Shown piece by piece: positions 21,199 through 61,003 of a stretch of DNA of 64,000 bases (its first letter is position 1; each line of letters begins with the position of its first letter). A model generated the notes under the pieces. That model searched no databases, was not told the origin of the DNA, and saw only the letters and a list, made by a program, of their open reading frames with translations. The position numbers and the translations under genes were made by a program. The stretch covers positions 64,001 to 128,000 of IMG/VR virus record IMGVR_UViG_3300028549_001461; one strand, written 5' to 3'. The DNA comes from a virus.

Positions 21199-22482
21199 AT
21201 GAAGAAAAAAATATTATGCTACTGTGATAGCCCTACATGTGCTACTGGTTTTGGTACTGTTAGTCGTAATGTATTGGAGCACTTGTATAGAAGTGGTGAT
21301 TATGAAATAGATATCTTTGGTATAAATTATCATGGTTTACCTCATAATTTTCCTTACAGAATTTGGCCAGCTATGGATTATCAGGCTGGTGATCCCTACG
21401 GTAGAAGAAAATTCTGTTACTTTGCTTTGGAACATGACTTTGATATTCTATGGGTATTACAAGATACTTTCATAGTAGATTTTCTTCCTGAACTTATACA
21501 TCATTTGAAAGCAAATAGAACAAAACCTTTTAGAACAATTATGTATTACCCCATAGATAGTACTTTGAAAAAAGACTGGTATAATAATATAAATGTTGTT
21601 GACAGATTAGTAGCTTATACTGATTTTGGTAGACAAGCTTTTTTAAAACAGGCAGCAGAGAATGGGCCCTCAGATGCTAAAGACAGAACAATAGATGTTA
21701 TATACCATGGTGTAGATACCAATATATTTAAAGTTTTACCAGAGACTGCTGTAACTGACTTTAAAGCAAACTATTTTTCTAAAGCTAATAAAGATAAATT
21801 TGTTTTTACAAACATTAATAGGAACCAACAAAGAAAGGACATACCAAGAACTTTACAAGCTTTTAAAGCATTTAATAAGCTTGTCCCAGAATCTATATTA
21901 TATCTGCACATGTGCCCAATAGATCAGGGTTGGGATATACCACAACTACTACCAGAAATGGGGTTAACTTTAGGTAAAGAAGTTGTTTTACCGGAGAAAA
22001 TGGAACCAAATCAAGGGTACCCTTTAGATGTTGTTAACTATCTTTACAATATTAGTGACTGTGTTATAAGCACAACTTTAGGTGAGGGTTTTGGTATTAG
22101 TTGGTTGGAAGCTATGGCTTGTAAAGTACCCGTTATAATGCCTGACAATACAGCTATGTCAGAATTGATATCTGAAGATCGCGGATATCTTACAAAAAGT
22201 GGTAGTAATCTAAGTCTATGGACAGTAATACCTAATGATAATAATCTACCCAGACCGTTAGTAGATGTTGATGACATGTTAAATCAGATGTTGCATGTTT
22301 ATAATAATCGTAGTGAAGTTACGTTAAAAGTGGAAGCTGCTTACAAATGGGTAAATTCAGAAATGCGGTGGGGAGCTAAAATAGCTAAACAGTGGCTGCG
22401 TGTTTTTGAGGAAGAGTGTAAATTGATAGGTACTAAGTCATCTGTGAGTGGTACTAAAGTTATATCAGCAGAACAAATTTAA
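21199..22482 (+). CDS. GT4 (GT-B) glycosyltransferase
   Basis: TGFG.V, HGVD..IF, NRNQ.RK, EGFGI..LEAMAC..PVI. Confidence 0.9.
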   Translation: MKKKILCYCDSPTCATGFGTVSRNVLEHLYRSGDYEIDIFGINYHGLPHNFPYRIWPAMDYQAGDPYGRRKFCYFALEHDFDILWVLQDTFIVDFLPELIHHLKANRTKPFRTIMYYPIDSTLKKDWYNNINVVDRLVAYTDFGRQAFLKQAAENGPSDAKDRTIDVIYHGVDTNIFKVLPETAVTDFKANYFSKANKDKFVFTNINRNQQRKDIPRTLQAFKAFNKLVPESILYLHMCPIDQGWDIPQLLPEMGLTLGKEVVLPEKMEPNQGYPLDVVNYLYNISDCVISTTLGEGFGISWLEAMACKVPVIMPDNTAMSELISEDRGYLTKSGSNLSLWTVIPNDNNLPRPLVDVDDMLNQMLHVYNNRSEVTLKVEAAYKWVNSEMRWGAKIAKQWLRVFEEECKLIGTKSSVSGTKVISAEQI

Positions 22483-22490
22483 AATAACTA

Positions 22491-22519
22491 TTGCAATAAA
22501 AAGTTTAATTGTGTATACT
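22491..22519 (+). promoter_or_regulatory. Sigma70-type promoter upstream of thyX, overlapped by a 16-bp inverted repeat
   Basis: TTGCAA-17 nt-TGTATACT; AGGAGG RBS downstream. Confidence 0.65.
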
Positions 22520-22563
22520 TTTATGTACACAATTAAACTTTATTAATTTTAGGAGGATTAAGT

Positions 22564-23319
22564 ATGAAAGTAAAGTTATTATCCGTAACACCTAATGCCA
22601 AAGAATTAATTTTTGCTGCCGGGAGACAATGTTACACTGAAGGTTGGGTAGGAGACTCCTGGGAAATACAAGATAACAATATCGTTATTAAAGATCTAAA
22701 CGATGGTCATACTTGTTCTGATAAAGAGATAGAAAGATTAGTTAATTATTTAAAAGAGTCTGGACATACCAGTGTCTTAGAACATGCTAAATTTACATTT
22801 GCTATCGATGGTGTTTCCAGAGCACTAACTCACCAACTTGTTAGACATAGACTTGCTTCATACTCTCAACAAAGTCAAAGATATGTAGATTTAAATGTAC
22901 AATTTTCTATTGATAATTTTGTTGTACCTCCTAAGATTCTCAAAAATGAAAAAGCTTATTTAGAATATGTTGATCTTCTTTCTAAAATACAAGATGTTTA
23001 TAATGCCTTAATTAATTTAGATATTCCTGCCGAAGATGCTAGATATGTTTTGCCTAATGCTGCTAAAACAAGAATTGTTGTGACTATGAATTGTGTGGCT
23101 CTTCTACATTTTTTTGGTTTAAGGTCTTGTACTTTAGCTCAATGGGAAATTAGAAATTTATCTAACAAACTATTGGCTATATGTAAGGAAAATTTACCTT
23201 GTGTTTTTAATAATGCAGGAAGTAGATGTGAAAATTTAGGTTATTGCCCAGAAAGTTCAAAACGATCTTGTGGTAAATATCCTACTAAAGATCAAGTTCT
23301 AGCAGAGGGACTCCATTGA
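22564..23319 (+). CDS. thyX: Flavin-dependent thymidylate synthase
   Basis: GH.SVLEH, SRALTHQLVRHRLASYSQQSQRY (RHRxxSxxxxSxR), AQWEIR. Confidence 0.96.
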   Translation: MKVKLLSVTPNAKELIFAAGRQCYTEGWVGDSWEIQDNNIVIKDLNDGHTCSDKEIERLVNYLKESGHTSVLEHAKFTFAIDGVSRALTHQLVRHRLASYSQQSQRYVDLNVQFSIDNFVVPPKILKNEKAYLEYVDLLSKIQDVYNALINLDIPAEDARYVLPNAAKTRIVVTMNCVALLHFFGLRSCTLAQWEIRNLSNKLLAICKENLPCVFNNAGSRCENLGYCPESSKRSCGKYPTKDQVLAEGLH

Positions 23320-23699
23320 AACAATATGTAATAGGTATCATTTTTAATAACACTGTTGAAAAAGTACTGCTTATAAGGAAAAATAGACCTAAATGGCAGT
23401 CCGGTAGATTAAATGGTGTAGGTGGAAAGGTAGAAGAAGTTGAATCTTCTTATGAAGCTATGATAAGAGAATGTCAAGAAGAGTGTGGTCTTTTACTACA
23501 TAATTGGTTACTAGTAGACACCTATACGGATGGGGTAAATTTTACAATTGACTATTTTATAATTAAAACACCATCCATAGAAAAAGCCGAAACATTAACA
23601 GATGAATTAATAGAAATTTGGTCTATCAATAATTTGCAATTTACTGATGTAGTTGAGCCTACTCTGGATTTTATACATAGAGTTAAATATAAAATATAG
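23316..23699 (+). CDS. NUDIX hydrolase
   Basis: Nudix box GGKVEEVESSYEAMIRECQEECGL. Confidence 0.9.
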   Translation: MKQYVIGIIFNNTVEKVLLIRKNRPKWQSGRLNGVGGKVEEVESSYEAMIRECQEECGLLLHNWLLVDTYTDGVNFTIDYFIIKTPSIEKAETLTDELIEIWSINNLQFTDVVEPTLDFIHRVKYKI

Positions 23700-23712
23700 T
23701 GGAGTTTATAGC

Positions 23713-24837
23713 ATGAAGATAACAGGGATTAAATATATAGGCCCGGTTCTAGACAATTCGGGATACGCAAAAGCTAGTAGAAATGATATATTAGCTTTGT
23801 TAACACAGGATGTGCCTTTAACATTACAACCAGTATCTTTTGAAAAATCTAATCCAGATTTAGGAGAAACTGGTGAAATACTTAAAGAACTAATAAACAA
23901 GGATATACCATATAATGTAGTTATGATAAGAACTACACCTGAATTTTGGGAAAAGTTTAAAGAACCAGGAAAGCTGATGATTAATCATACTATATGGGAA
24001 ACTACAAAACTTCATCCTGATTGGGTGCCTTATATAAATGATAATGCAGATAAACTTTTAGTAGCCACAGATTGGAATGCAGAAGTTTTTAGAGATAGTG
24101 GTATTACAATACCTATTGGTGTTGTACCTCACTGTTTAGATATAGACATCGATAAAAAAAATATTACCCCCTATAAGGTCGCAGATATAGAAAGTGACAC
24201 ATTTACATTTGGCTTTGTAGGACAGTGGGTAGAGAGAAAAGACCCTCTGTCTCTCCTTAAATCTTATTTTTATGCTTTTAGAAACAAAGAGAATGTAGCT
24301 TTAATTTTAAAAACATACAGGTCCAATTACTCGGAGCAAGAAAAACAAATCATTAGAACTACAATAAAACATTTAAAAAATGGTATGGTTTTTGATAATT
24401 TTCCAAAAATATATTTTGTTTCAGATATGTTAACTGATGCTGAGATAGATGGTTTTTACAAAGGAATTGATTGTTATGTGTCTTTGGATAGAGGTGAGGG
24501 TTGGGGATTAGGCCCGTTTCAGGCAGGAGCCGCTGGTAAACCTGTTATTGCCACAGGTTTTGGAGGAGTAAACGCTTTTTTGAAACCTGATAATAGTTAT
24601 TTAGTAAATTATACTTTAGCACCTACCCACGGCATGCCTTATTCACCGTGGTACAAATCAGAGCAACTTTGGGCCCAAGCAGATATAAAACATGGTGCTG
24701 ATCTTATGCAAGAAGTTTTTAACGATAGAGCCGGAGCAAAAGAAAAGGGACTTAAATTAAAAGAATATATAAAAGATACTTTTTCTTATACAAAAGTTGG
24801 CGCCATGATGGTTAAAGAAATTGAGGATATGCTATGA
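23713..24837 (+). CDS. GT4 (GT-B) glycosyltransferase
   Basis: SGYAKASR, WETT, ERK, RGEGWGL...A...GKPVIAT. Start placed at ATG after GGAG. Confidence 0.88.
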   Translation: MKITGIKYIGPVLDNSGYAKASRNDILALLTQDVPLTLQPVSFEKSNPDLGETGEILKELINKDIPYNVVMIRTTPEFWEKFKEPGKLMINHTIWETTKLHPDWVPYINDNADKLLVATDWNAEVFRDSGITIPIGVVPHCLDIDIDKKNITPYKVADIESDTFTFGFVGQWVERKDPLSLLKSYFYAFRNKENVALILKTYRSNYSEQEKQIIRTTIKHLKNGMVFDNFPKIYFVSDMLTDAEIDGFYKGIDCYVSLDRGEGWGLGPFQAGAAGKPVIATGFGGVNAFLKPDNSYLVNYTLAPTHGMPYSPWYKSEQLWAQADIKHGADLMQEVFNDRAGAKEKGLKLKEYIKDTFSYTKVGAMMVKEIEDML

Positions 24838-25313
24838 GAAGAACATTGAATGTAGGCTGCGGTGAAAGGGTGTATAAAATTTACCCAGAAGGATATGTGT
24901 GTGTAAATTTTGATGAACGTTCTTTGGATGGTGTTGATGTAGTAGGAGATGTCAAGGATTTATCTCAATTTTGCGATGGATATTTTTCTTATATACTCGC
25001 TTCTGACATTTTAGAGCACTTTCCTATAGACAAAAGCTTGGGTATTTTACGTGAGTGGCAGCGTGTTTTAGAAAAAGGAGGACGTATTGAATTTAGAGTA
25101 CCTAATTTAAAAACTATCTGTGCACAGTACGATGGAAAAAATGCCAAATTCATTAGTTGGCTACTCTACGGAGCTCAAAACTACTCAGGAAATTTCCATT
25201 ATGTTTGTTTTGACAGAATGCTATTAGAAGAATATTGTACTTTAGTAGGTTTGAGACCTATTGAATACAGAGAAGAGGGCAACAACTTTATATTGCTAGC
25301 CATTAAAGATTGA
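24834..25313 (+). CDS. Class I SAM-dependent methyltransferase (Methyltransf_11-like)
   Basis: LNVGCG, ILEH, W.RVL..GG....VP. Confidence 0.85.
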   Translation: MRRTLNVGCGERVYKIYPEGYVCVNFDERSLDGVDVVGDVKDLSQFCDGYFSYILASDILEHFPIDKSLGILREWQRVLEKGGRIEFRVPNLKTICAQYDGKNAKFISWLLYGAQNYSGNFHYVCFDRMLLEEYCTLVGLRPIEYREEGNNFILLAIKD

Positions 25314-25458
25314 TACCTATTTAAATTGCTTATTTTACCTTCTGTGAGTACTTACTAATTGTTGGTAGCTTTCCATATCTATACATATAAAAAGTTACTG
25401 TAGAGCATTCTGAGACTTTTTACGCGTATTAAATATCTAATAGAGTAGCGGAGGATTA

Positions 25459-26025
25459 ATGTCTGATTTTAAAAAAAAGTTCGTGCATAATTTACTAGAA
25501 AATGTTATAATTTCTGAAATGCTAAAAGAATTCGGTGAAGATTTATATGATAAATGCATTATGGACGTGAGCTTTGGTTGTAATTTGCATGATTTTTATC
25601 TTAATCATCTTCAGGCATCTTTAGTTACAAGCACCTCTTTACCTGATTCGGAGGTTGATACTTTGTTAGACTACCGTTTGGACGTACTTAATCTTGACCT
25701 ACATGATCGTGTAGGTGCTTTTAGTAGCCAATACGATATTGTTGTCGCCTATGATACTTTTAATGTGTACCTATCTGATATAAACTGGCAAGCTACTCTT
25801 GAGAATTTACTTTTTTATATAAAACCAGGGGGTCTTTGTATAGTAAACGGTACTTTTCCTACTATTACTTTAGATGATTCTATTCGTTCCAGATCTAAAG
25901 GTGTTTGGCGAGCTTTAATTAAAAAATGTAATTGTTCAATAATTACTTTACTTGATAATAGCTCTAACTACTTTTTTGTAAACGACAAAATAATGGTAAT
26001 TCAAAAATGCAAGAAATTAAATTAA
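25459..26025 (+). CDS. Degenerate class I methyltransferase-like protein
   Basis: MDVSFGC, YDIVV, IKPGG motifs; glycine loop divergent. Confidence 0.6.
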   Translation: MSDFKKKFVHNLLENVIISEMLKEFGEDLYDKCIMDVSFGCNLHDFYLNHLQASLVTSTSLPDSEVDTLLDYRLDVLNLDLHDRVGAFSSQYDIVVAYDTFNVYLSDINWQATLENLLFYIKPGGLCIVNGTFPTITLDDSIRSRSKGVWRALIKKCNCSIITLLDNSSNYFFVNDKIMVIQKCKKLN

Positions 26026-26453
26026 TCGTATCTGAGATAGATGGTGTTATAACTACAGGTGTAGATCCTGTAGATGAGCTTGGTAATGTTTTATTTAAAA
26101 ACTTTTTTATCCCTGATTTTGAAGCTATTAATAAATTAAAGGCTATATGTCCTTTTGTATTTCTATCTTCCGATAATTCAGTTAGTTACAATCTAACTAG
26201 GAGAAAAAATATCCCTTTTTATTGGACAAATAAATCAGATAAGTTAAGTATTTTACAACAAATACTAATGCGCTATAATGTTACATCTGACGAGACTCTT
26301 TATGTGGGTAGTAAATTATCTGACATACCATGTATGCAGATGGTTCCTGCTTCATTTTGTACTAACACTACTCTCGGTTTTCCTACATTTTCTTGCAAAG
26401 CTGGTGAAGGTATTTTAACTGAATTGTATATTAAATATTTTAAAAAGAATTAA
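26007..26453 (+). CDS. KdsC/YrbI-like HAD phosphatase homolog
   Basis: IKLIVSEIDGVIT.G, K.F...D, YVG....DIP. The nucleophile position reads E instead of D. Confidence 0.75.
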   Translation: MQEIKLIVSEIDGVITTGVDPVDELGNVLFKNFFIPDFEAINKLKAICPFVFLSSDNSVSYNLTRRKNIPFYWTNKSDKLSILQQILMRYNVTSDETLYVGSKLSDIPCMQMVPASFCTNTTLGFPTFSCKAGEGILTELYIKYFKKN

Positions 26454-27534: not shown

Positions 27535-29472
27535 ATGGCTAATTTAGTGTCTTTCGTTGATTTACCTGAGTTGCCAATTCCTACATACGAATATGTTAAG
27601 GATGAATTTAGAGCAAGAGAAATTCTTTCTATACTTGATAATTACCCCGTACTTGAGGTCGATACTGAAGGTACCTCTTTAGACCCATTTGGTTGTAGAA
27701 CCACATTAATACAGATAGGCATACCTAATATGGCTTATGTTTTTGATGTGCGTAGTGACTTACCTGATATAACAATACACGGAAGCTTATTTAAAGGTAT
27801 ACTCACAGATAAAAGAATATTGAAACTTTTACAGAACGCCAATTACGATATGAAGGTACTTAAAGTTCAGTATGGTTTTTATATAGAGAATGTCTACGAT
27901 ACTATGTTAACTGAAATATTACTTTATCTTGGTATACAGGAATCAGGTTTTAGTTTAGCTAAGTTAGTAGAAAAATATTTAGGTATGGTTATGAATAAAG
28001 AGCCGAGGGGAACTTTTGAAGCTTATGACCAAGAGTTTTCAGACAAACAGATAGCTTATGCAGCTAATGACGTTTGTGTTCTTGATTTTATAAGAAACAT
28101 GCAGAAGCCACGTCTTGAAAAGTACAATCTACAGGAAGTACATAAGTTAGAAATGTCCTTTATAAAACCTCTTGTAGAGATGGAACTGAATGGTGTTAAG
28201 TTAGATGTTGTTAAATGGCGTATTATGATGTCGGAGTTTGCAAAAGAGCTAGAGGTATTTAAATCCTTCATAGAAGATAGTTTACAAGTTACACAAGATC
28301 AACTATCCTTATTTGATGTACCTACTGTTAATATAGCAAGTCCAGTACAATTAAAAACAGCTTTAAATAGATTGGGTATAAAGGTTGAATCTACGTCTAA
28401 TGACGTACTAAAGAAATACTCACATCATAAAGTTATTGAAAATTTATTATCATATAGAAAAAATTCTAAATTGGTTAATACTTATGGTGAAGCTTTAATA
28501 GATAGAATACATCCAAAAACAGGTCGTTTACATACTGAGTTTAAGCAGATGGTTTCAACTGGTAGACTATCTTCCAATAACCCAAATTTACAGAATATTC
28601 CAGGGAAACAAAAGTTTAGATCCTGTTTTATAGCTGACTATAAAATGTGTTTAATAACAGTGGATCAGAATTCTGCTGAGTTAGTAATAATGGGGGCAAT
28701 GTCGGGAGAACCTAACTTCATAGATACTTATGAAAAGGGACTAGATTTACACACAGTGAATGCTTCCCGTATTTATGGTGTGCCGTATGATAAAGTTACT
28801 CCAGAACAAAGAAAGGCTTCAAAAGCAATATCGTTCGGTTTAGCTTATGGTATATCAGCAGTTGGTTTAGGCAAGCGTTTAGGTATTCCTAAAGAAGCTG
28901 CACAAAAACTTATTGATGCCTATTTTAAAGCAAATAATGTATTGTGTTCTTGGTTGAATAAAGCAGCTAAAGATGCTGTAAGAACACATAGTAGTGTTAC
29001 TATTACTGGTAGACATCGTTTTTATAATATACCATCGATGAGTGACCCAGCTAGAAAAGCCATCATTGGTTCAGTAGAACGGGCTTCTAAGAATCACAAA
29101 ATTCAAGGTTCAGACAGTGACACAATTAAATTAGCTATGATTTTATGTGTCGATAGATTGGAAGAACTGAATGTTGGCGCAAGATTACTTTTATCTGTGC
29201 ACGATGAAATTGTTGTTGAGTCTCCTATAGAGCATGCAGAAGAAGTAGCTAAGGTCGTAGTTAGTGCTGTGGATGATGCCTTTAACTACTACTTTCCTAT
29301 AATGCCTATGAAAACATCTCCAGTAATTGGACCATGTTGGATTAAAGGTGAGTGCGAGGCGAAAAATACAGAAACAGGTAAGAAGTGTGAACATAATGTT
29401 ATGCAATTTATTGAAGATACACACTATGGTTCTAAGCTAGTTTGTGCTAAATGTGGTGCTCCACAAGAATAA
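27535..29472 (+). CDS. polA: Family A DNA polymerase with 3'-5' exonuclease, no 5' nuclease, C-terminal Zn ribbon
   Basis: Exo I DTE, Exo II N..YD, Exo III YA..D; TGRLSS..PNLQNIP, motif B R...K...FG..YG, motif C VHDE. Confidence 0.95.
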   Translation: MANLVSFVDLPELPIPTYEYVKDEFRAREILSILDNYPVLEVDTEGTSLDPFGCRTTLIQIGIPNMAYVFDVRSDLPDITIHGSLFKGILTDKRILKLLQNANYDMKVLKVQYGFYIENVYDTMLTEILLYLGIQESGFSLAKLVEKYLGMVMNKEPRGTFEAYDQEFSDKQIAYAANDVCVLDFIRNMQKPRLEKYNLQEVHKLEMSFIKPLVEMELNGVKLDVVKWRIMMSEFAKELEVFKSFIEDSLQVTQDQLSLFDVPTVNIASPVQLKTALNRLGIKVESTSNDVLKKYSHHKVIENLLSYRKNSKLVNTYGEALIDRIHPKTGRLHTEFKQMVSTGRLSSNNPNLQNIPGKQKFRSCFIADYKMCLITVDQNSAELVIMGAMSGEPNFIDTYEKGLDLHTVNASRIYGVPYDKVTPEQRKASKAISFGLAYGISAVGLGKRLGIPKEAAQKLIDAYFKANNVLCSWLNKAAKDAVRTHSSVTITGRHRFYNIPSMSDPARKAIIGSVERASKNHKIQGSDSDTIKLAMILCVDRLEELNVGARLLLSVHDEIVVESPIEHAEEVAKVVVSAVDDAFNYYFPIMPMKTSPVIGPCWIKGECEAKNTETGKKCEHNVMQFIEDTHYGSKLVCAKCGAPQE

Positions 29473-29881: not shown

Positions 29882-30121
29882 ATGAAAATATTTAAAACTG
29901 AACAACTTGCTTTACAGTCTCTTGTAGAAAAAGAAATGTACTATTTAAATGGCTTTTGCCCCTATACTGAGTGTGGTAAAGTTGTTGATAGATTGTGTGG
30001 AAATTGGTGTGCTTTATTTTATTATGACAAAGGTAATGAGAATACTAGTCCCTATGTTATTTTAGGTTGTAAAGCAGGTGAAAAATATCTTTATGTTGAA
30101 AAATTAGTGGAGGAAGTATGA
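29882..30121 (+). CDS. Small Cys-containing hypothetical protein
   Basis: 79 aa; CP...C....C..WC pattern; RBS present. Confidence 0.55.
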   Translation: MKIFKTEQLALQSLVEKEMYYLNGFCPYTECGKVVDRLCGNWCALFYYDKGNENTSPYVILGCKAGEKYLYVEKLVEEV

Positions 30122-30582
30122 TAGCAAATGTGTGTGGTTGTTCTAATGACGCTTTAGATATTAAAATTAAATATCATAGTAAAGACATTAATGATGTAGC
30201 TAAGATTAGAGTCGGTGACTGGATTGATCTTAGATCTGCTGAATATGTTGAAATGAAAATGTTTGATTTTAAATTTATATCCTTAGGTATTTCTATGGAG
30301 ATACCAGAAGGTTACGAAATGCTACTCGCTCCAAGAGGTAGTACTTTTAAAAATTTTGGAATTATACAACCCAATAGCCCAGGTGTTATTGATAATTCTT
30401 ACTGTGGTGATGACGATATTATAAAAATGCCAGCACTTGCTATGCGTGATACTATAATAAATATTAATGACCGGATTTGTCAGTTTAGATTACTACCTAA
30501 TCAAAAAACACTAAATTTTATAGTAGTGGATTCTTTGAGTAATAGTAATCGCGGAGGATTTGGTTCTTCTGGCAAAAATTAA
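30118..30582 (+). CDS. dut: Trimeric dUTPase
   Basis: GDWIDL, APRGS, GVID.SY.G, RICQ, RGGFGSSG. Confidence 0.93.
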   Translation: MIANVCGCSNDALDIKIKYHSKDINDVAKIRVGDWIDLRSAEYVEMKMFDFKFISLGISMEIPEGYEMLLAPRGSTFKNFGIIQPNSPGVIDNSYCGDDDIIKMPALAMRDTIININDRICQFRLLPNQKTLNFIVVDSLSNSNRGGFGSSGKN

Positions 30583-33240: not shown

Positions 33241-33420
33241 ATGGATAGAACATCGAAGACAGTTTTAACAGAAATGCAGGAACTTTTTAATGCTATGATG
33301 GAAGATGGAGAGAAGTGGATTGAAAAAGATAATAACTCCGCTGCGGCACGAGTTAGAAAATCTACATTGGCTCTTGAAAAACTTGGAAAAGAGTTTAGAA
33401 AGCTATCAGTTAAAGAGTAA
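33241..33420 (+). CDS. Hc1-like histone H1-type small DNA-binding protein (59 aa, missing from the ORF track)
   Basis: MDRTSK..EDGEKWIEKDNNSAAARVRKSTLALEKLGKEFRKLSVKE matches the EKGNKAA..R.RK....L....KEFRK.S pattern; GAGG RBS. Confidence 0.8.
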   Translation: MDRTSKTVLTEMQELFNAMMEDGEKWIEKDNNSAAARVRKSTLALEKLGKEFRKLSVKE

Positions 33421-33641: not shown

Positions 33642-34481
33642 ATGGCAAAACCATTATTGAAATGGATAGGTGGTAAAAATAAATTACTTAAAAATTTATC
33701 TTTATATGTTCCAACTGGTTACAGTAATTATATAGAGCCTTTTGTAGGTGGAGGTGCTCTATTATTCTACTTAAATCCTTCAATAGGAACTATAAACGAC
33801 TCTAATAGAGAATTGATTAATTTTTATACACAGGTTAGAGATAACCCAATAGAATTATTGGAGTTAACTAAGCTATATAAACTATCAGAAGAATCATATT
33901 ATTTGATTAGAGATGATGACAAGGAAATGGATTGGAGAGACTACAAATCATGTTTACAAAGAGCAGCAAGATTTTTATTTTTAAATAAAACTGCTTTTAA
34001 TGGAATTTGGCGGGTTAATGGTAAAGGTCGTATGAACACACCATACGGAAAATATGACAAAGTTTTATGGCCTGACAAGGGTCATATGTTAAACGTATCA
34101 AGAATTTTGAAAAAGATTACTATTTTAAATGGTGATTTTTATAACACTGAACTATATATTAATAATAAAACTTTTGTTTATTTAGATCCACCATATATAC
34201 CTTATTCAGATACAGCTAATTTTACAAACTACTCTTCAAAAGGTTTTGGAATACAAGATCATATTAGACTTGTAGATTACTGTAATTTTGTAAATGCTTG
34301 TGGAGCTAAATTCTTATTATCAAATTCAGACACACCCTTAACAAGAGAGTTGTTTAAGAGTTTTGAGATAAATTCTGTAGATGTGTATCATAGTGTAGGG
34401 GCTTCTGCTAAATCCAGAAAGGACAAAGGAGAGGTTATAATAAGGAATTACGAGGGAAGTTGTACAGGACTTTTTTTATAA
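33642..34481 (+). CDS. dam: Dam/DpnM-family N6-adenine DNA methyltransferase
   Basis: LKWIGGK, YIEPFVGGG, LNK..FNG..R.N..G..N.P.G, YLDPPY, LSNS. Confidence 0.92.
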   Translation: MAKPLLKWIGGKNKLLKNLSLYVPTGYSNYIEPFVGGGALLFYLNPSIGTINDSNRELINFYTQVRDNPIELLELTKLYKLSEESYYLIRDDDKEMDWRDYKSCLQRAARFLFLNKTAFNGIWRVNGKGRMNTPYGKYDKVLWPDKGHMLNVSRILKKITILNGDFYNTELYINNKTFVYLDPPYIPYSDTANFTNYSSKGFGIQDHIRLVDYCNFVNACGAKFLLSNSDTPLTRELFKSFEINSVDVYHSVGASAKSRKDKGEVIIRNYEGSCTGLFL

Positions 34482-34497
34482 AAAGGAGAATTTAATT

Positions 34498-35247
34498 ATG
34501 AGTAAATTTCAGTCGGCGTGGTCTGGCGTGTTTAAAGAGCTAGATGTTGTAAATCATGTAAATGCTTATGGTTTTTTAGATGTTACTTCTGATAAGCTAA
34601 AAGAGATTACTGGAGAAGAGTCAAGATTATTGGCTAAAATGGATAATAGAAAGAAACAACCAGCAGTTATGCGAGAAAATAATATATCTTTACTTGCAGT
34701 TAAAAATGGTAGATATAGGTTTACTAAAGAAAACCCATTTATTGCTATACCAGACATTTCAAATATGCGTGTTTATCCTATTAAGAAAATGGAAGGTTTG
34801 CTGACTTTAGATAAGTTTAGTAAAGATACTAAAACTGAAACTATGGCTTTAGACTTAGCACATTACAATAGTATATTAGACGATTGTTTTGGTGAAAAAG
34901 TGTCTTTAACACTTCGTAATAAGCGTAGAGCTTCTTTTAAATTTAAATTGGGAAGAACTGATTTTGATGTAGATAAAGTACAAATAGAAGTTGATGGTTG
35001 TTATGAAGGTGCTAAAGGAATACATATTGTAGAAGCTAAAAATTCGGATGAAAAAGATGCTACAATTCGTCAACTACTTTATGCTAAAAAGATGATTACT
35101 GAAGTAATTAGAGGGGAGAAACCTGTTTATGCTTGGCTAATGGTGTATGATAGAAAAACAGGTGTATATAATTTTCATAAATTTTTAGAAGGTAGTAATA
35201 GATACTACTTTGATGTTGCACAGAGCAAGAGATATGTTTTAAAATAA
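34498..35247 (+). CDS. Putative type II restriction endonuclease (DUF6996/DUF6997-like)
   Basis: W..VF...E.RLLAKMD....P...G.Y N-terminus and QIEVD..YE......VEAK....IRQL.Y nuclease motif; adjacent to dam. Confidence 0.7.
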   Translation: MSKFQSAWSGVFKELDVVNHVNAYGFLDVTSDKLKEITGEESRLLAKMDNRKKQPAVMRENNISLLAVKNGRYRFTKENPFIAIPDISNMRVYPIKKMEGLLTLDKFSKDTKTETMALDLAHYNSILDDCFGEKVSLTLRNKRRASFKFKLGRTDFDVDKVQIEVDGCYEGAKGIHIVEAKNSDEKDATIRQLLYAKKMITEVIRGEKPVYAWLMVYDRKTGVYNFHKFLEGSNRYYFDVAQSKRYVLK

Positions 35248-35270: not shown

Positions 35271-35693
35271 ATGCTTTTACACGAGAAACTAAAAGAGGAT
35301 TTAAAAGTAGCTATGAAAAATAAAGCTACTTCTGCTAATGACCTGAAATATATTTTAGGTGAGTTCTCCAGATTAAAGGGTACTAAGGATGGTAAGGAAT
35401 ATATAGGTAGTGTTTTAACGGATAAACAAGTTATTAGAATTTTTAAACTTATAATAGCCGGAGAAAATAAGCTTAAAGAACTTGTACCTAGTTCAGTTAG
35501 TACATTAATCCCCCTGATTGATAATTATCTACCAAAGCAGATTTCAAGAGAAGACTTATTGTGTTTTATAGCCACTATAAATTTTTCAGAACTTGCAAAC
35601 AAAATGCAAGCAGTAAAAATAATTAAAGCTCATTTTGGAGACTCAGTTGATGGTAAGGTAGTTTCAGATATTATACAAGGATTAGATTTATGA
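35271..35693 (+). CDS. GatB/YqeY domain protein
   Basis: L.E.LKEDLK.AMK, YLPKQ.S.E.L, DGK.VS..I. Confidence 0.85.
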   Translation: MLLHEKLKEDLKVAMKNKATSANDLKYILGEFSRLKGTKDGKEYIGSVLTDKQVIRIFKLIIAGENKLKELVPSSVSTLIPLIDNYLPKQISREDLLCFIATINFSELANKMQAVKIIKAHFGDSVDGKVVSDIIQGLDL

Positions 35694-36724
35694 TTAAATT
35701 GATAAAAGGTAAAATAAACATACTTATTGATGGACAATTTGGTTCTACTGGTAAGGGTTTATTTGCAGAGTACTTATCTGATTTGGACATACAGATTGCC
35801 ATTACTAACGCTGGCCCTAATTCTGGTCATACCTTCTCTTTTAAAGGTGCCAAACAGGTAACAAAACAGTTACCTGTTACTGGCATACTTAATACAGATA
35901 GTATAATTTACATAACTCATGGATCCATAATTGAGCCATCAACCTTTTTTAAGGAACTTGAGTTATTTAATATAGCTGCCGAAAGAGTAATTATAGATCC
36001 AAGAGCTACTGTTGTTCATGATAAAGATATATTCGCAGAGGAAGCAAGCAACTCTTCTTTTACTAATATATCTTCTACCCAGAGTGGTGCTGGTAATGCT
36101 TTATCCAGAAAAATTCGTAGAGAAGGAAACATAGCTGGTAATTACAACGCTTTTTCTGTATTTACGAAACCCTTTAATTTGGAACATAATCTGAATTCAG
36201 GTAAACTAGCTTTGATGGAAGTTCCACAAGGTTTAGGCTTATCTTTAAATTCTAAATTTTATCCCTACTGTACAAGCAGAGATATTACAATAGCAAACTC
36301 TCTAAATGATTGTGGTGTGCACCCATATTATCTTGGTAAGGTCTTAGTATGTCTACGTACTTTTCCTATACGAGTTGGTAATCTAATTTCCAATTGTTCT
36401 GAAAATTCTTACAAAGACACAGGCACCACATGTGCAACTATTAATTATTCTGGGGATTTTTATAGAGACAGTGTGGAAACCACATGGGATGCCATAGGAG
36501 TTCCTAAAGAATATACTACTAATACTAAACGTGTAAGAAGAGTGGCTACTTTTTCATATGAGCAATATAAAGATATGCTAGTTAAATTAAGGCCTGATTA
36601 TGTATTTTTAAATTTTTGTAATTACCTAAGTGAGGAAGAGTTATCTAGGTTATTAGACAATTTACCACTAGTAACCCACCTTGGTTTTGGAGATACTGTG
36701 GATAAAATTGTTTCAATAAATTGA
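35690..36724 (+). CDS. purZ: PurZ-like N6-succino-2-amino-dAMP synthetase (adenylosuccinate synthetase paralog)
   Basis: Q[FY]GSTGKG instead of PurA GDEGKG, PN.GHT, YPYCTSRD, R..PIRVG, TT.TK.VRRV..FS, and LNFCNY instead of PurA TKLD. Confidence 0.85.
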   Translation: MIKLIKGKINILIDGQFGSTGKGLFAEYLSDLDIQIAITNAGPNSGHTFSFKGAKQVTKQLPVTGILNTDSIIYITHGSIIEPSTFFKELELFNIAAERVIIDPRATVVHDKDIFAEEASNSSFTNISSTQSGAGNALSRKIRREGNIAGNYNAFSVFTKPFNLEHNLNSGKLALMEVPQGLGLSLNSKFYPYCTSRDITIANSLNDCGVHPYYLGKVLVCLRTFPIRVGNLISNCSENSYKDTGTTCATINYSGDFYRDSVETTWDAIGVPKEYTTNTKRVRRVATFSYEQYKDMLVKLRPDYVFLNFCNYLSEEELSRLLDNLPLVTHLGFGDTVDKIVSIN

Positions 36725-36766
36725 AAAAATTTAATATAATTATATATTTATAGTTATAAGCGAGGG

Positions 36767-37723
36767 TTGAATATGGAAGTATATAGAACAATAAATGGTC
36801 ATGTAGCCAAGTATGTCCATGATGACGGCTCAGAAACAGCTATAAAAACTATACCACCTGGAGAAGTTGGTTGTGGTGGTTATGGTAGTATAGGTAATAA
36901 GTACAATATTTTTATAAGTACTTCTGTTGGATGCCCTGTATCATGTAAGTTTTGTTATTTGACAGTTAAAAAGTGCCCCTATCATAAATTAACTGCACGA
37001 GATGTAGTTTTAAATGTTTTAGACGCTTTAACTGCTGAGTTAAAAGAAAGACCAGAACTTAGATACATGTACACTAAAATTTCTTGGATGGGTATGGGAG
37101 ATGGTTTTTTCGACACTTCATTAGTCTTTGAAGCTACCGAAGACCTTATGGAGTACATACAAAGTTTTGAAATGTCTTTAGGTATAGATGGTGTAGATAT
37201 AGCAACAACTTTACCAAAAATACCTGATGGTCCAGTTGATTACATAAAAAAGATATCCGAAAGTGTTTGGGAAACTTATTTAAATCCAAAACGGGAGTAT
37301 AAGAGAGGTAGCAGCCAACAACCTTTTAGGGTTTTTTATTCTTTACAAAGCGCAAATGAATTGACAAGAAAAAGTCTAATACCTAATAGTGTAAATATTT
37401 CAGATGCTATTGATTATTTAAAAAATTTAAATAACAACAACATACCTATTATATTTCATTATATGTTTTTTGAAGGTAAAAATGACTCTGAGGAAGAAGT
37501 TACAGCTCTTCTTAAACTTTTGAATAACTTTAATAATTCTGAACTTCGTTTACTACGTTTTAATAAATGCCCAGGCACTGATTTTTCAGAGTCACCAAAA
37601 TTTAACGAACTGGTAGATACGATATATACCAAGCATAAAAATTTAAAAGTACAAATTTCCCCAGGGTCCGAGATCCAGGCAGCTTGCGGTATGTTTTTAT
37701 TATCTAAGATTTTAACTAAGTGA
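36767..37723 (+). CDS. RlmN/Cfr-like radical SAM methyltransferase homolog
   Basis: S.SVGCxxxCxFC, MGMGD, SL.S.....R..LIP, ND..E, I.AACG. Confidence 0.85.
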   Translation: MNMEVYRTINGHVAKYVHDDGSETAIKTIPPGEVGCGGYGSIGNKYNIFISTSVGCPVSCKFCYLTVKKCPYHKLTARDVVLNVLDALTAELKERPELRYMYTKISWMGMGDGFFDTSLVFEATEDLMEYIQSFEMSLGIDGVDIATTLPKIPDGPVDYIKKISESVWETYLNPKREYKRGSSQQPFRVFYSLQSANELTRKSLIPNSVNISDAIDYLKNLNNNNIPIIFHYMFFEGKNDSEEEVTALLKLLNNFNNSELRLLRFNKCPGTDFSESPKFNELVDTIYTKHKNLKVQISPGSEIQAACGMFLLSKILTK

Positions 37724-37731
37724 GGTTACTT

Positions 37732-38127
37732 ATGGATGCACAGAAGGCTAAAGCTCTTACTAAAAGTACCTTAGATACCAGACGTAAAAAAGAGTTATCT
37801 GAAAAAAAAGCTAAGGCTGCCGCTAGAGAAAAGAGACAACAGCGAGAAGCCATTGAGGTTACAGAGTATATCAAGAAGCATTTAGATGTTGACGTAACTT
37901 CTGCTGCTAAAAAAGGTAAATCTGATATTTGGTATCATAAGGATGATTTTAAAAACTACTTAGATGAGTATACTTTGCATAGTCAATATATACAGCCTTT
38001 AACAAAGTACTTAAAAGATAAAGGCTTTAAAGTAGAATATTTTTCTGATGACTCAAAATCAGAAACATCTGACATTGACTATCAAGGTTATATTGAAGTT
38101 ACCAGAAGTATCCACATTTCTTGGTAG
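37732..38127 (+). CDS. Hypothetical protein
   Basis: Lys-rich ORF with GAGG RBS before ATG 37732. Confidence 0.55.
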   Translation: MDAQKAKALTKSTLDTRRKKELSEKKAKAAAREKRQQREAIEVTEYIKKHLDVDVTSAAKKGKSDIWYHKDDFKNYLDEYTLHSQYIQPLTKYLKDKGFKVEYFSDDSKSETSDIDYQGYIEVTRSIHISW

Positions 38128-58660: not shown

Positions 58661-59545
58661 ATGGCTAACTTTAGTGCAGTACTAGTAGGAATAAATAAGT
58701 ACAATAGTGCTCCTCTGCGTGGATGCGTTAATGACGTTATAATAATGCGTGATATCCTTGTTAAGATTTATGGTGTTCCAGCGCATCAAATACGTTTGGT
58801 CCTTGATGAAAGAGCTACAAAAGAAAACATACTTGAAAGATTAGAGTGGTTAATAACTAATGACGCAGAAAATAAATTATTTTATTACTCTGGTCATGGT
58901 GCTCAGATCCCAGTACAGAATTACTCTACAGACAATTACGAACCAGACTCTATGGATGAATTGATTTGTCCTGTAGATTTTGATTGGGATGGTACTTATA
59001 TATTAGATAACCATATTGAATTACTTGTACGTAAATTAAAGATAGGGCACCACATGTCTATGGTAATTGATGCTTGCCATAGCGGTTCAATAGACAGGGC
59101 ACACAGCGATGGGGATTTACGAATAAAAAAGATAGACACACCATTAGATTTAATGTCCCGACTTTCAGGAATATCTTTGTCTAATGATATTTTTGAGGAT
59201 AAGCTAATGTCTAATATTAAAAATGAAGATGATAGATTTTTTCTGGATAACCTTTTTCCACAAGATGATTGTATTCCGATAAATACTCCTTCATATAGTA
59301 AACATAATATATCTATTATTACTGGATGTAAGGATGACCAGACTTCTGCAGATGCTTATTTCACTAATAGATATCAAGGTGCTTTGTCTTTTGTTATGCA
59401 AAGTATTCTTCTAAAAAATCCTAAAATAGATCTGAAGTCATTAAGGGATCGGTGTGAAGAAATTTTAAAGAACCGTCGTTTTGAACAAACTCCACAGGTA
59501 ATTAGTAGCGAAGATAATATTGTAAAACCTTTTATACAACTGTAG
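58661..59545 (+). CDS. Metacaspase (peptidase C14)
   Basis: GIN.Y...L.GCVND, YYSGHG, DACHSG dyad, QTSAD, Q.PQ. Confidence 0.92.
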   Translation: MANFSAVLVGINKYNSAPLRGCVNDVIIMRDILVKIYGVPAHQIRLVLDERATKENILERLEWLITNDAENKLFYYSGHGAQIPVQNYSTDNYEPDSMDELICPVDFDWDGTYILDNHIELLVRKLKIGHHMSMVIDACHSGSIDRAHSDGDLRIKKIDTPLDLMSRLSGISLSNDIFEDKLMSNIKNEDDRFFLDNLFPQDDCIPINTPSYSKHNISIITGCKDDQTSADAYFTNRYQGALSFVMQSILLKNPKIDLKSLRDRCEEILKNRRFEQTPQVISSEDNIVKPFIQL

Positions 59546-60274: not shown

Positions 60275-60276
60275 AT

Positions 60277-60349
60277 TGGTGGGTATTTCAGGTGGTAGAA
60301 AATCAGTCTCATAAGCTGAAAGTCGTCGGTTCGACTCCGTACTCACCAA
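60277..60349 (+). tRNA. tRNA-Met/Ile2 (anticodon CAT), weak T-stem
   Basis: tggtggg/ctcacca acceptor, tcagt-ctCATaa-gctga, TTCGACT T-loop. Confidence 0.8.
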
Positions 60350-60358
60350 AATAATTAA

Positions 60359-60430
60359 GGCTTTGTAACTCAGAGGTAGAGTGCTTCCCTGAAGAGGAAG
60401 AGGTCGATAACTCAAAATTATCCAAAGCCG
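60359..60430 (+). tRNA. tRNA-Phe (GAA), atypical T-loop
   Basis: ggctttg/caaagcc acceptor, cttcc-ctGAAga-ggaag, T-arm gataa-ctcaaaa-ttatc. Confidence 0.75.
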
Positions 60431-60439
60431 TATAGTTAA

Positions 60440-60512
60440 TGACCCATAGCTTAGTTGGTAGAGCAAGGAGCTTTTAACTCCGAGGTCGAGAGTTCAAATC
60501 TCTCTGGGTCAA
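60440..60512 (+). tRNA. tRNA-Lys (TTT)
   Basis: tgaccca/tgggtca acceptor, ggag-ctTTTaa-ctcc, gagag-ttcaaat-ctctc. Confidence 0.9.
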
Positions 60513-60515
60513 AAT

Positions 60516-60628
60516 ATGTAGTCGAGCCATTGCTGATAAGCGGTTTCCGCAGAGTACGAATGCAAGAAAAAGAATGTGCTTGGAGTAAACTATAGCGGGA
60601 TTAAAGAGACTGTGTCCGCCCACTACAT
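60516..60628 (+). ncRNA. Unassigned structured RNA within the tRNA array
   Basis: Closing helix atgtagt/actacat plus internal helices; GC-richer than flanks; no ORF. Confidence 0.5.
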
Positions 60629-60662
60629 TTTTATTGCTTTTTGTTTTTGTATATGTTATAAT

Positions 60663-60735
60663 GATGCCATAGTATAATGGTTAGTACACAAGACTTTCAA
60701 TCTTGTAACGGAGGGTTCAACTCCCCCTGGCACCA
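60663..60735 (+). tRNA. tRNA-Glu (TTC)
   Basis: gatgcca/tggcacc acceptor, caaga-ctTTCaa-tcttg, GGTTCAACTCC T-arm. Confidence 0.85.
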
Positions 60736-60740
60736 AATAA

Positions 60741-60826
60741 GGAGAATGTCAATAAGGTAAGCTGGGCTTACGGCGGACTGTAAATCCGCTCCCACAGGGC
60801 AAGTGGTTCGATTCCATCATTCTCCA
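60741..60826 (+). tRNA. tRNA-Tyr (GTA), non-canonical 8/4 fold
   Basis: ggagaatg/cattctcc, gcgga-ctGTAaa-tccgc, gtgg-ttcgatt-ccat. Confidence 0.8.
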
Positions 60827-60835
60827 CACTTTAAA

Positions 60836-60921
60836 GGAAAGCGTCCGGCTGGACGAGGAGCCTGTCTTGAAAACAGGTAGCGGCTTAAAAACCGTTTGGG
60901 GTTCGAGTCCCTAGCTTTCCG
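60836..60921 (+). tRNA. tRNA-Ser (TGA), long variable arm
   Basis: ggaaagc/gctttcc-G73, cctgt-ctTGAaa-acagg, tgggg-ttcgagt-cccta. Confidence 0.85.
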
Positions 60922-60924
60922 AAT

Positions 60925-61003
60925 GCGGGTAGATAAGCACTGGGTGCTAAGGGACCTTCCAAGTCTCGGTCTTTGACGTGGAGTTCGATTCTCCCTACCC
61001 GCT
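60925..61003 (+). tRNA. tRNA-Gly (TCC), non-canonical 8/4 fold with variable-arm hairpin
   Basis: gcgggtag/ctacccgc-U73, gggac-ctTCCaa-gtctc, ggag-ttcgatt-ctcc. Confidence 0.8.

Follow-up and report, generated by a model that had tools for sequence, protein, structure and literature searches.

A PurZ-type synthetase gene beside the gene of a virus-specific RlmN/Cfr-like radical SAM enzyme in a large phage

A stretch of 64,000 nucleotides of viral DNA (hereafter the window; bases 64001-128000 of the 161,221-bp IMG/VR virus record IMGVR_UViG_3300028549_001461, the completeness of which is estimated at 61% by CheckV) carries two adjacent, co-directional genes: purZ, encoding a homologue of the synthetase of the 2-aminoadenine (Z) pathway, and a gene for a radical S-adenosylmethionine (SAM) enzyme related to RlmN and Cfr (hereafter rSAM). 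The phage that harbors this pair is large, probably >200 kb. The positional link between purZ and rSAM is real but facultative, and we give an even chance to the reading that two separate enzymes were inherited as neighbours and serve independent functions rather than one pathway. What is firmly new is the variant radical SAM family as well as a clade of PurZ in large phages that is devoid of the usual helper genes. The two genes and the interval between them are as follows:

35690..36724, + strand: purZ, N6-succino-2-amino-2'-deoxyadenylate synthase homologue (344 aa)
36725..36772, + strand: variable AT-rich interval of 48 nt separating purZ from rSAM
36773..37723, + strand: rSAM, predicted minimal class-A (RlmN/Cfr-like) radical SAM methylase (316 aa)

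Identity of the two gene products

The purZ product belongs to the adenylosuccinate-synthetase fold (PF00709, 91.6 bits) and matches phrog_1211, described as '2-aminooxy adenylosuccinate synthetase', at 5e-55, while its top NCBIfam model is PurZ NF038379 (205 bits, with a cut-off of 300 bits). It aligns end to end with PurZ of phiVC8 and S-2L, and across 92-96% of its length it shows 33-39% identity to PurZ of these and other Z phages. In the Protein Data Bank (PDB), the top matches are phiVC8 PurZ (6FM1, 6e-41) and S-2L PurZ (7ODX), compared to 7e-30 for an archaeal PurA and 1e-12 for E. coli PurA. Furthermore, Ser19 in the P-loop (G-S-T-G-K-G) takes the place of the catalytic PurA Asp13, and this serine is invariant across 19 aligned sequences; the same Asp-to-Ser substitution was present in 100% of phage PurZ in a 2026 survey (PMC12884076). 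The serine P-loop and the two PDB matches bear out the PurZ signature noticed in the first-pass annotation of the window, and at the level of sequence the gene at 35690-36724 is confirmed to encode a PurZ-type synthetase.

The rSAM ORF (open reading frame) was initially called from TTG 36767, but ATG 36773 is the true start, as judged from relatives and from a GAGGG ribosome-binding site, resulting in a protein of 316 aa. The two genes are indeed close neighbours, as first described, with the gap then given as about 40 nt amounting to 48 nt from the corrected start. Residues are numbered here according to P0001, counted from 36767. The RlmN-family motifs reported at the outset were found in the protein (VGCPVSCKFC, WMGMGDG and AACGMF), with the cluster cysteines at Cys56/60/63, MGMGD at positions 108-112, a further Cys268, and Cys307 within the AACG loop. 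RlmN TIGR00048 (72 bits, cut-off 290) and Cfr NF000424 (47 bits, cut-off 530) are the top family models. An AlphaFold2 model (predicted local distance difference test score of 85) has RlmN 6FZ6 and 3RFA as well as 5HR7 as its top structural matches, at template modelling scores of 0.66-0.70, with RlmN/Cfr at 1.8e-15 and the next fold at 3.7e-08. Motifs, family models and modelled structure thus confirm a distant RlmN/Cfr-like radical SAM enzyme, which belongs to a virus-specific family.

This family comprises 206 cluster representatives in the 90% database, or ~137 clusters at 50% identity, at E <=1e-30; past that value, scores fall toward ordinary RlmN. Its members have about 300-350 residues and reside on contigs of large-phage size, and the corresponding Atlas clusters are 75-89% viral. 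Two members (L072 and L074) are encoded on metagenome contigs of 1.46 and 1.12 Mb, well above the other hosts; these contigs may represent prophage-carrying cells or else assembly errors. Fused or longer forms (558-2000 aa) were sought and not found, which is weak evidence, and the small number of members extended at the N- or C-terminus showed no recognisable added domain.

With RlmN, the C2-methylase of 23S rRNA A2503 and tRNA A37, and Cfr, the C8-methylase of A2503, the enzyme has in common the CxxxCxxC and MGMG(D/E) motifs, the A-A-C-G loop and the fold. Among 105 aligned members, the cluster cysteines are kept in 104 and Cys307, equivalent to the methyl carrier of the A-A-C-G loop (RlmN Cys355, Cfr Cys338), in 103. 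However, besides being mostly viral, the family differs from both enzymes in several respects. It is ~60-70 residues shorter at the N-terminus and lacks the N-terminal domain: the profile alignment begins at position 39, corresponding to RlmN residue 110, the protein starts at the beta-hairpin just ahead of the core, and only a short three-strand sheet precedes the core in the model. Moreover, the position of the resolving cysteine (RlmN Cys118, Cfr Cys105), seven residues ahead of the cluster motif, is occupied by Phe49, with Phe in 100 of the 105 members and Cys in none, while the family has gained the near-invariant Cys268 (102 of 105 members), which belongs to an R-F/Y-N-x-C motif and aligns to RlmN Phe314. 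In the model, Cys268 lies in a loop following a barrel strand. Its conservation and this predicted position suggest that it may be a relocated resolving cysteine that replaces Cys118. As a large, almost purely viral branch of RlmN/Cfr in which the N-terminal domain and resolving cysteine are gone and another invariant cysteine has been gained, the family constitutes a natural experiment on the mechanism of class A radical SAM enzymes.

The nearest homologue from a cultured phage is gene_104 of Klebsiella phage 05F01, annotated as 'radical SAM protein' (LC483177.1), with 32% identity over 95% of the length. It has the same truncated architecture and a C-terminal S-S-C-G-M-F loop. Unlike in the window's enzyme, the Cys268 position is occupied by Gly and a Cys precedes the cluster motif by four residues, which fits a second cysteine that shifts position. 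The gene adjoins those of an anaerobic ribonucleotide reductase (RNR).

Outside the window, the same genome encodes another RlmN/Cfr-like radical SAM protein (266 aa; G000:C1:152785-153585, - strand; locus L003:1120-1920). It scores 78 bits with TIGR00048, ends after the core, and has neither the C-terminal loop with the methyl-carrier Cys nor an equivalent of Cys118. This paralogue is 69-76% identical across distant phages and is also present in the closest relative of the window's phage (G001), and a homologue directly follows rSAM in L014 and PurZ in L052.

Recurrence and history of the pairing

A search of a literature library revealed no paper linking PurZ to a radical SAM enzyme and none describing phage RlmN-like enzymes, in line with the initial statement that no pairing of PurZ with an RlmN homologue was known. 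Two recent studies of Z-pathway associations list HD_3/DatZ, MazZ-type, DpoZ, NDT, UDG and dUTPase-like partners, with no rSAM among them. The pairing recurs in nine further loci representing about seven distinct phages, and in both gene orders. Two other members of the window's clade (L030, L049) have the order YqeY, PurZ, small ORF and rSAM. In distant lineages, in which rSAM is 42-44% identical, the order is reversed to rSAM, two to four unrelated small ORFs and PurZ (L050/L051, L052, L064, L069/L214 and L213; spacing 393-1,825 nt), and the intervening small ORFs are not conserved from lineage to lineage. The L050 pair occupies another backbone position than that of the window, namely between homologues of the window genes at 52-55 kb and 58-63 kb. 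No contig was found in which purZ and rSAM lie far apart, and their adjacency exceeds coincidence. By our own arithmetic for three independent contigs (161, 157 and 123 kb), random placement within 2 kb would be expected at ~2.5-3% per contig, a figure that overstates the case since phage genes are not placed at random.

Nevertheless, each gene occurs mostly without the other. The closest relatives of the window region (L004-L008; 70-85% amino acid identity, full synteny) encode Dam, DUF6996/7 and YqeY followed ~10 nt on by rSAM, with no purZ; RNR, Hc1, YqeY and rSAM follow one another in L029 and L031, and YqeY is directly followed by rSAM in L053, again with no purZ. The window's closest relative, G001 (228 kb, 86% complete), shares 121 of 164 ORFs, with a median identity of 64%, and a search for PurZ found none anywhere in this genome, which also lacks thyX. 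In the complete genome G003 (276 kb), rSAM is present and PurZ was not found; the complete genome G004 (363 kb) has rSAM and only a weak, 25-bit PurA-like match; and PurZ was likewise not found in five further records with rSAM or in the genome of Klebsiella phage 05F01. Of 39 informative rSAM lineages left after dereplication, about 31 are without purZ within 3-10 kb, and in unbiased samples (20 IMG/VR and 80 metagenome rSAM loci) PurZ was located within 10 kb in L064 and L069 only. Conversely, 80 IMG/VR PurZ loci (10 kb) contained DatZ in 62 cases, DpoZ in 59 and rSAM in none, and two genomes that encode PurZ of the large-phage type have no rSAM (G009, 91% complete; G010, 100% complete). Linkage in related phages, which the first-pass annotation had named as a check on its proposal, is thus absent from the closest relatives and from the sampled PurZ loci, while on every contig found to carry both genes they lie within 1.8 kb of each other. 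Since the rSAM family is found mostly in genomes without PurZ, it is not a dedicated Z-modifying enzyme, and Z is not a required substrate.

Phylogenetic analysis placed the PurZ-adjacent lineages in three parts of the rSAM tree, for which at least 6 gains or losses are needed. In the PurZ tree, all rSAM-adjacent PurZ together with four 'solo' PurZ form one clade (Shimodaira-Hasegawa-like approximate likelihood-ratio support of 94), which has no DatZ/DpoZ neighbours. The branching within this clade matches the rSAM tree where resolved, and this congruence of the paired lineages fits co-inheritance. The simplest history suggested by the sequences would be an old adjacent pair that was often cut to one gene and was inverted once; the survival of the pair while its neighbours turned over suggests either that linkage was selected for or that the two genes moved together as a cassette.

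At finer scale, the interval between the genes varies. It contains a sigma-70-like match at 36721-36748, although such matches are common in AT-rich DNA as found here (the GC content of the window is about 32%). DNA nearly identical to the window is present in one microbial-mat metagenome, from which the record probably stems, and in wastewater metagenomes of several studies. With blastn, the region had no match among 50,697 phage records. Among wastewater strains with 97% identical PurZ, a contig swaps 36727-36771 for ~303 letters that open with a ribosome-binding site and ATG, and the same slot holds an ORF of 95 aa or 121 aa (DUF3268) in L030 and L049. No wastewater-strain contig joins YqeY directly to rSAM. 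The ~303-letter variant marks the spacer as a variable slot, while the lack of a joint that skips purZ shows this gene to be stable in the phage species.

Z pathway and probable substrate of the radical SAM enzyme

The PurZ homologue, with its Asp-to-Ser signature and 33-39% identity, is what connects this phage to the canonical PurZ-MazZ-DatZ (and DpoZ) clusters of phiVC8 and S-2L. In contrast to these, no DatZ, MazZ or DpoZ was found beside purZ or elsewhere in the 161-kb record, where domain searches detected neither MazG nor PRA-PH and BLAST did not match any of the S-2L/phiVC8 proteins; purZ is found instead in a large phage and in a PurZ clade without those neighbours. Two HD proteins were considered as purZ-linked DatZ candidates and rejected because the PurZ-less G001 has both, and the NUDIX and dUTPase genes of the record are common to G001 as well. 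The family A polymerase PolA (27535-29472) was likewise rejected as a DpoZ: it scores 86 bits with the DpoZ_1 model (cut-off 500), has no tblastn match to phiVC8 DpoZ and is closest to bifunctional exonuclease/PolA models (394 bits). The PurZ0/DutZ/DmtZ systems of Arthrobacter and Gordonia phages (PMC12884076) resemble the window in combining a PurZ-group enzyme without DatZ with a dUTPase-family gene nearby (30118-30582, 5 kb upstream of purZ). However, the dUTPase gene is also present in relatives without purZ and is therefore probably an ordinary Dut. No NDT/DmtZ turned up, though no search was aimed at these.

How, or how fully, Z-DNA is made by this helper-less clade is a question that the missing DatZ, MazZ and DpoZ raise directly. 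One answer would be that PurZ of the large-phage clade brings about only partial substitution, or serves purine pool metabolism, instead of full replacement of A by Z. This is in line with the missing partners (a DutZ-type partner included), with HD, NUDIX and dUTPase genes that are common to the PurZ-less relative, with the low DpoZ score of PolA, and with the presence of a Dam methylase. However, 39% of the genome is missing from the record, the protein has the Ser signature of all phage PurZ, and one member of the clade (L214) has a candidate helper gene, so that we consider this answer possible but on the unlikely side. The candidate (L214:12969-13265) is a 98-aa ORF directly after PurZ that appears MazG-like by eye, with E-E-x-x-E-L and E-x-x-D-type motifs, and that has no Pfam or NCBIfam match; a MazZ analogue within the large-phage PurZ clade is possible on the basis of these motifs.

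Under the explanation that we favor, that of independent functions, PurZ would, as expected from its family membership, condense dGMP with aspartate, and host PurB and kinases would convert the product to dZTP, with perhaps some or all A of the phage DNA replaced by 2-aminoadenine. As for rSAM, homology predicts that a first SAM methylates Cys307 and that the [4Fe-4S] cluster at Cys56/60/63 cleaves a second one; a methylene radical would then join a ring carbon of an adenine in nucleic acid, and the adduct would be resolved by Cys268 in place of the missing RlmN Cys118. The rSAM gene represents a widely held backbone gene of large phages, mostly without purZ, and would have a substrate other than Z; purZ represents an accessory gene of one PurZ clade sited beside it. 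The pair may have been co-inherited or moved as a unit, possibly as a co-selected nucleic-acid-modification cassette in which the methylase does not act on Z. Because every characterised relative acts on such a site, the most likely target of rSAM is, by analogy, an adenine in RNA of the host or the phage that is comparable to A37 of tRNA or A2503 of 23S rRNA. Moreover, C2 of Z is already substituted, and RlmN-type C2 chemistry therefore cannot act on Z. Even with no joint pathway, rSAM would then be a phage-encoded RNA adenine C-methylase, and a Cfr-type activity on the ribosome would be worth knowing. The window also contains five tRNA genes (60276-61003; Met-CAT, Lys-TTT, Glu-TTC, Ser-TGA and Gly-TCC), all of which have A37, which does not discriminate between substrates.

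Several observations weigh against independent functions with an RNA target. The enzyme is without the N-terminal domain of RlmN/Cfr, the role ascribed to Cys268 rests on its conservation and its loop position after a barrel strand, and the homologue from Klebsiella phage 05F01, with Gly at this position, carries its additional Cys elsewhere. Furthermore, the adjacency is too constant to be set aside: wherever a contig carries both genes they are 48 to 1,825 nt apart, in two orders and at least three backbone contexts and with almost all other neighbours differing. Finally, while none of the neighbours is universally conserved across 73 dereplicated rSAM loci (the commonest being RNR in 10, YqeY in 9 and PurZ in 8, the latter inflated by deliberately chosen loci), they are mostly genes of DNA and nucleotide metabolism across clades, including RNR, dUTPase, PolA, DNA methylases, NrdD and UDG; a minority of RNA-related genes (YqeY, RlaP, RNA ligase, PTH2 and 2H phosphoesterase) speaks for an RNA target instead.

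In part, the same observations favor an alternative in which rSAM C-methylates a purine of phage DNA or of the deoxynucleotide pool and acts jointly with PurZ. In phages that lack PurZ the modified position would be C2 or C8 of A, while in those that have it the methyl would go to C8 of Z or of leftover A. Together, the two enzymes would shield adenine positions from host nucleases by minor-groove or ring substituents. The constant proximity in both orders and at different backbone positions, the surroundings rich in DNA and nucleotide metabolism and DNA methylases, and the missing RlmN N-terminal domain are what would be expected, and substitution by Z in a PurZ clade without DatZ/DpoZ is maybe partial, leaving A to modify. 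However, most rSAM lineages are without PurZ and most PurZ loci without rSAM, C2 of Z is blocked, and among the 105 members no rSAM residue cleanly tracks the presence of purZ beyond what phylogeny explains. To our knowledge, no class-A radical SAM methylase acts on DNA, and the literature search on phage RlmN/Cfr was likewise empty. In addition, each methyl costs the RlmN mechanism two SAM as well as reducing power, a high price for modifying a whole genome. Taken together, this makes joint action on a DNA purine unlikely. Quite unlikely is the fuller claim that rSAM is a purine C-methylase of DNA or deoxynucleotides that together with PurZ yields an unreported base through a two-enzyme module of adenine hypermodification; that base would be C8-methyl-2-aminoadenine, or C2/C8-methyladenine at positions not replaced by Z, and the system would both extend the list of DNA bases and be the first to include a class A radical SAM methylase directed at DNA. 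A shared system for methylated Z or another new purine had been proposed in the first-pass annotation. The gene identities and the recurrent adjacency on which it drew hold, but the mostly separate occurrence of the genes and the blocked C2 of Z do not agree with it, and a methylated-Z system is thus possible but not the likeliest reading and is not supported as stated.

It is also conceivable, though quite unlikely, that rSAM has left RlmN/Cfr chemistry altogether for another radical reaction or a substrate other than nucleic acid, in which case its adjacency to purZ would be historical only. The scores far below the RlmN and Cfr cut-offs, the loss of the N-terminal domain and the Phe at the Cys118 position would agree with such a departure, as would the truncated paralogue without the Cys loop in the same genome, which exemplifies reuse of the fold. 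On the other hand, the enzyme retains the methyl-carrier Cys in the A-A-C-G loop, the MGMG(D/E) motif and the whole fold, and RlmN/Cfr are its top structural matches by a clear margin.

Genes around the pair and further observations

The pair belongs to a long co-directional array of genes for replication and nucleotide metabolism, which includes a DnaB-like helicase, primase, exonuclease, glycosyltransferase, ThyX, NUDIX, a second glycosyltransferase, methyltransferases, clamp loader, PolA, dUTPase, class I/II-type RNR, Dam, DUF6996/7, YqeY, purZ and rSAM. The immediate neighbours are:

33642..34481, + strand: Dam-type (D12 class) N6-adenine DNA methyltransferase (PF02086, 182 bits)
34498..35247, + strand: DUF6996/DUF6997 protein (PF22515 and PF22518)
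35271..35693, + strand: YqeY/GatB-C-terminal-like small protein (phrog_1460, 1.5e-15; PF09424, 25.6 bits)
37720..38127, + strand: 135-aa ORF overlapping the rSAM stop codon, conserved 3' of rSAM among relatives

The Dam-like methylase mentioned in the first-pass annotation is therefore present as described. It is variably kept among relatives, being encoded in L004-L008 without purZ and missing from L030, which carries purZ, and is thus not tied to purZ. In contrast, the nuclease reported alongside it is the DUF6996/DUF6997 protein, for which domain and structure-database searches returned no PDB relative by sequence and no evidence of a nuclease. The proposed self/non-self modification island is accordingly weak, as Dam, DUF6996/7 and purZ come and go independently among relatives and no nuclease has been shown.

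The stop codon of yqeY overlaps the purZ ATG (ATGA). YqeY, which is directly 5' of rSAM in L004-L008, L029 and L031, was considered as an obligatory partner of rSAM and rejected: the two adjoin only in the window's phage clade, where the arrangement is constant, and are tens of kb apart in G003 and G004. Homologues of the 135-aa ORF, the Pfam matches of which are weak and below threshold, are located two ORFs past rSAM in L004-L008 (32-38% identity) and directly after rSAM in L049 (73%). In L030 (4001-4708) and L031 (5431-6132), a GIY-YIG/NUMOD3 homing-endonuclease-like gene directly follows rSAM on its 3' side, where the window has none, and the rSAM flanks look like a hot spot for mobile inserts.

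Further upstream, the interval between RNR and Dam holds a 59-aa ORF (33241-33420) where relatives carry a gene of 59-65 aa for Hc1 (PF07432, histone H1-like). In the relative G001 (L008:3568-7626), the gene for the RNR large subunit matches the window RNR as two pieces ~1.5 kb apart, a pattern that suggests an intein or the insertion of a mobile intron/endonuclease. Within the replication module, a run at 21199-26453 comprises a glycosyltransferase, ThyX (PF02511), NUDIX, a glycosyltransferase, a small SAM-methyltransferase, a methyltransferase-like ORF and a weak HAD-like ORF, and may be a cluster for pyrimidine or sugar modification; its ThyX gene (22564-23319) is, like purZ, missing from G001.

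Downstream of the pair, the window encodes a BTLCP-type cysteine protease (PF06035, 57272-57709) and a caspase-like Peptidase_C14 (58661-59545), neither of which is present in G001. In L050/L051, the rSAM-PurZ pair is closely followed by homologues of both families, and in L017 a C14 gene adjoins rSAM.

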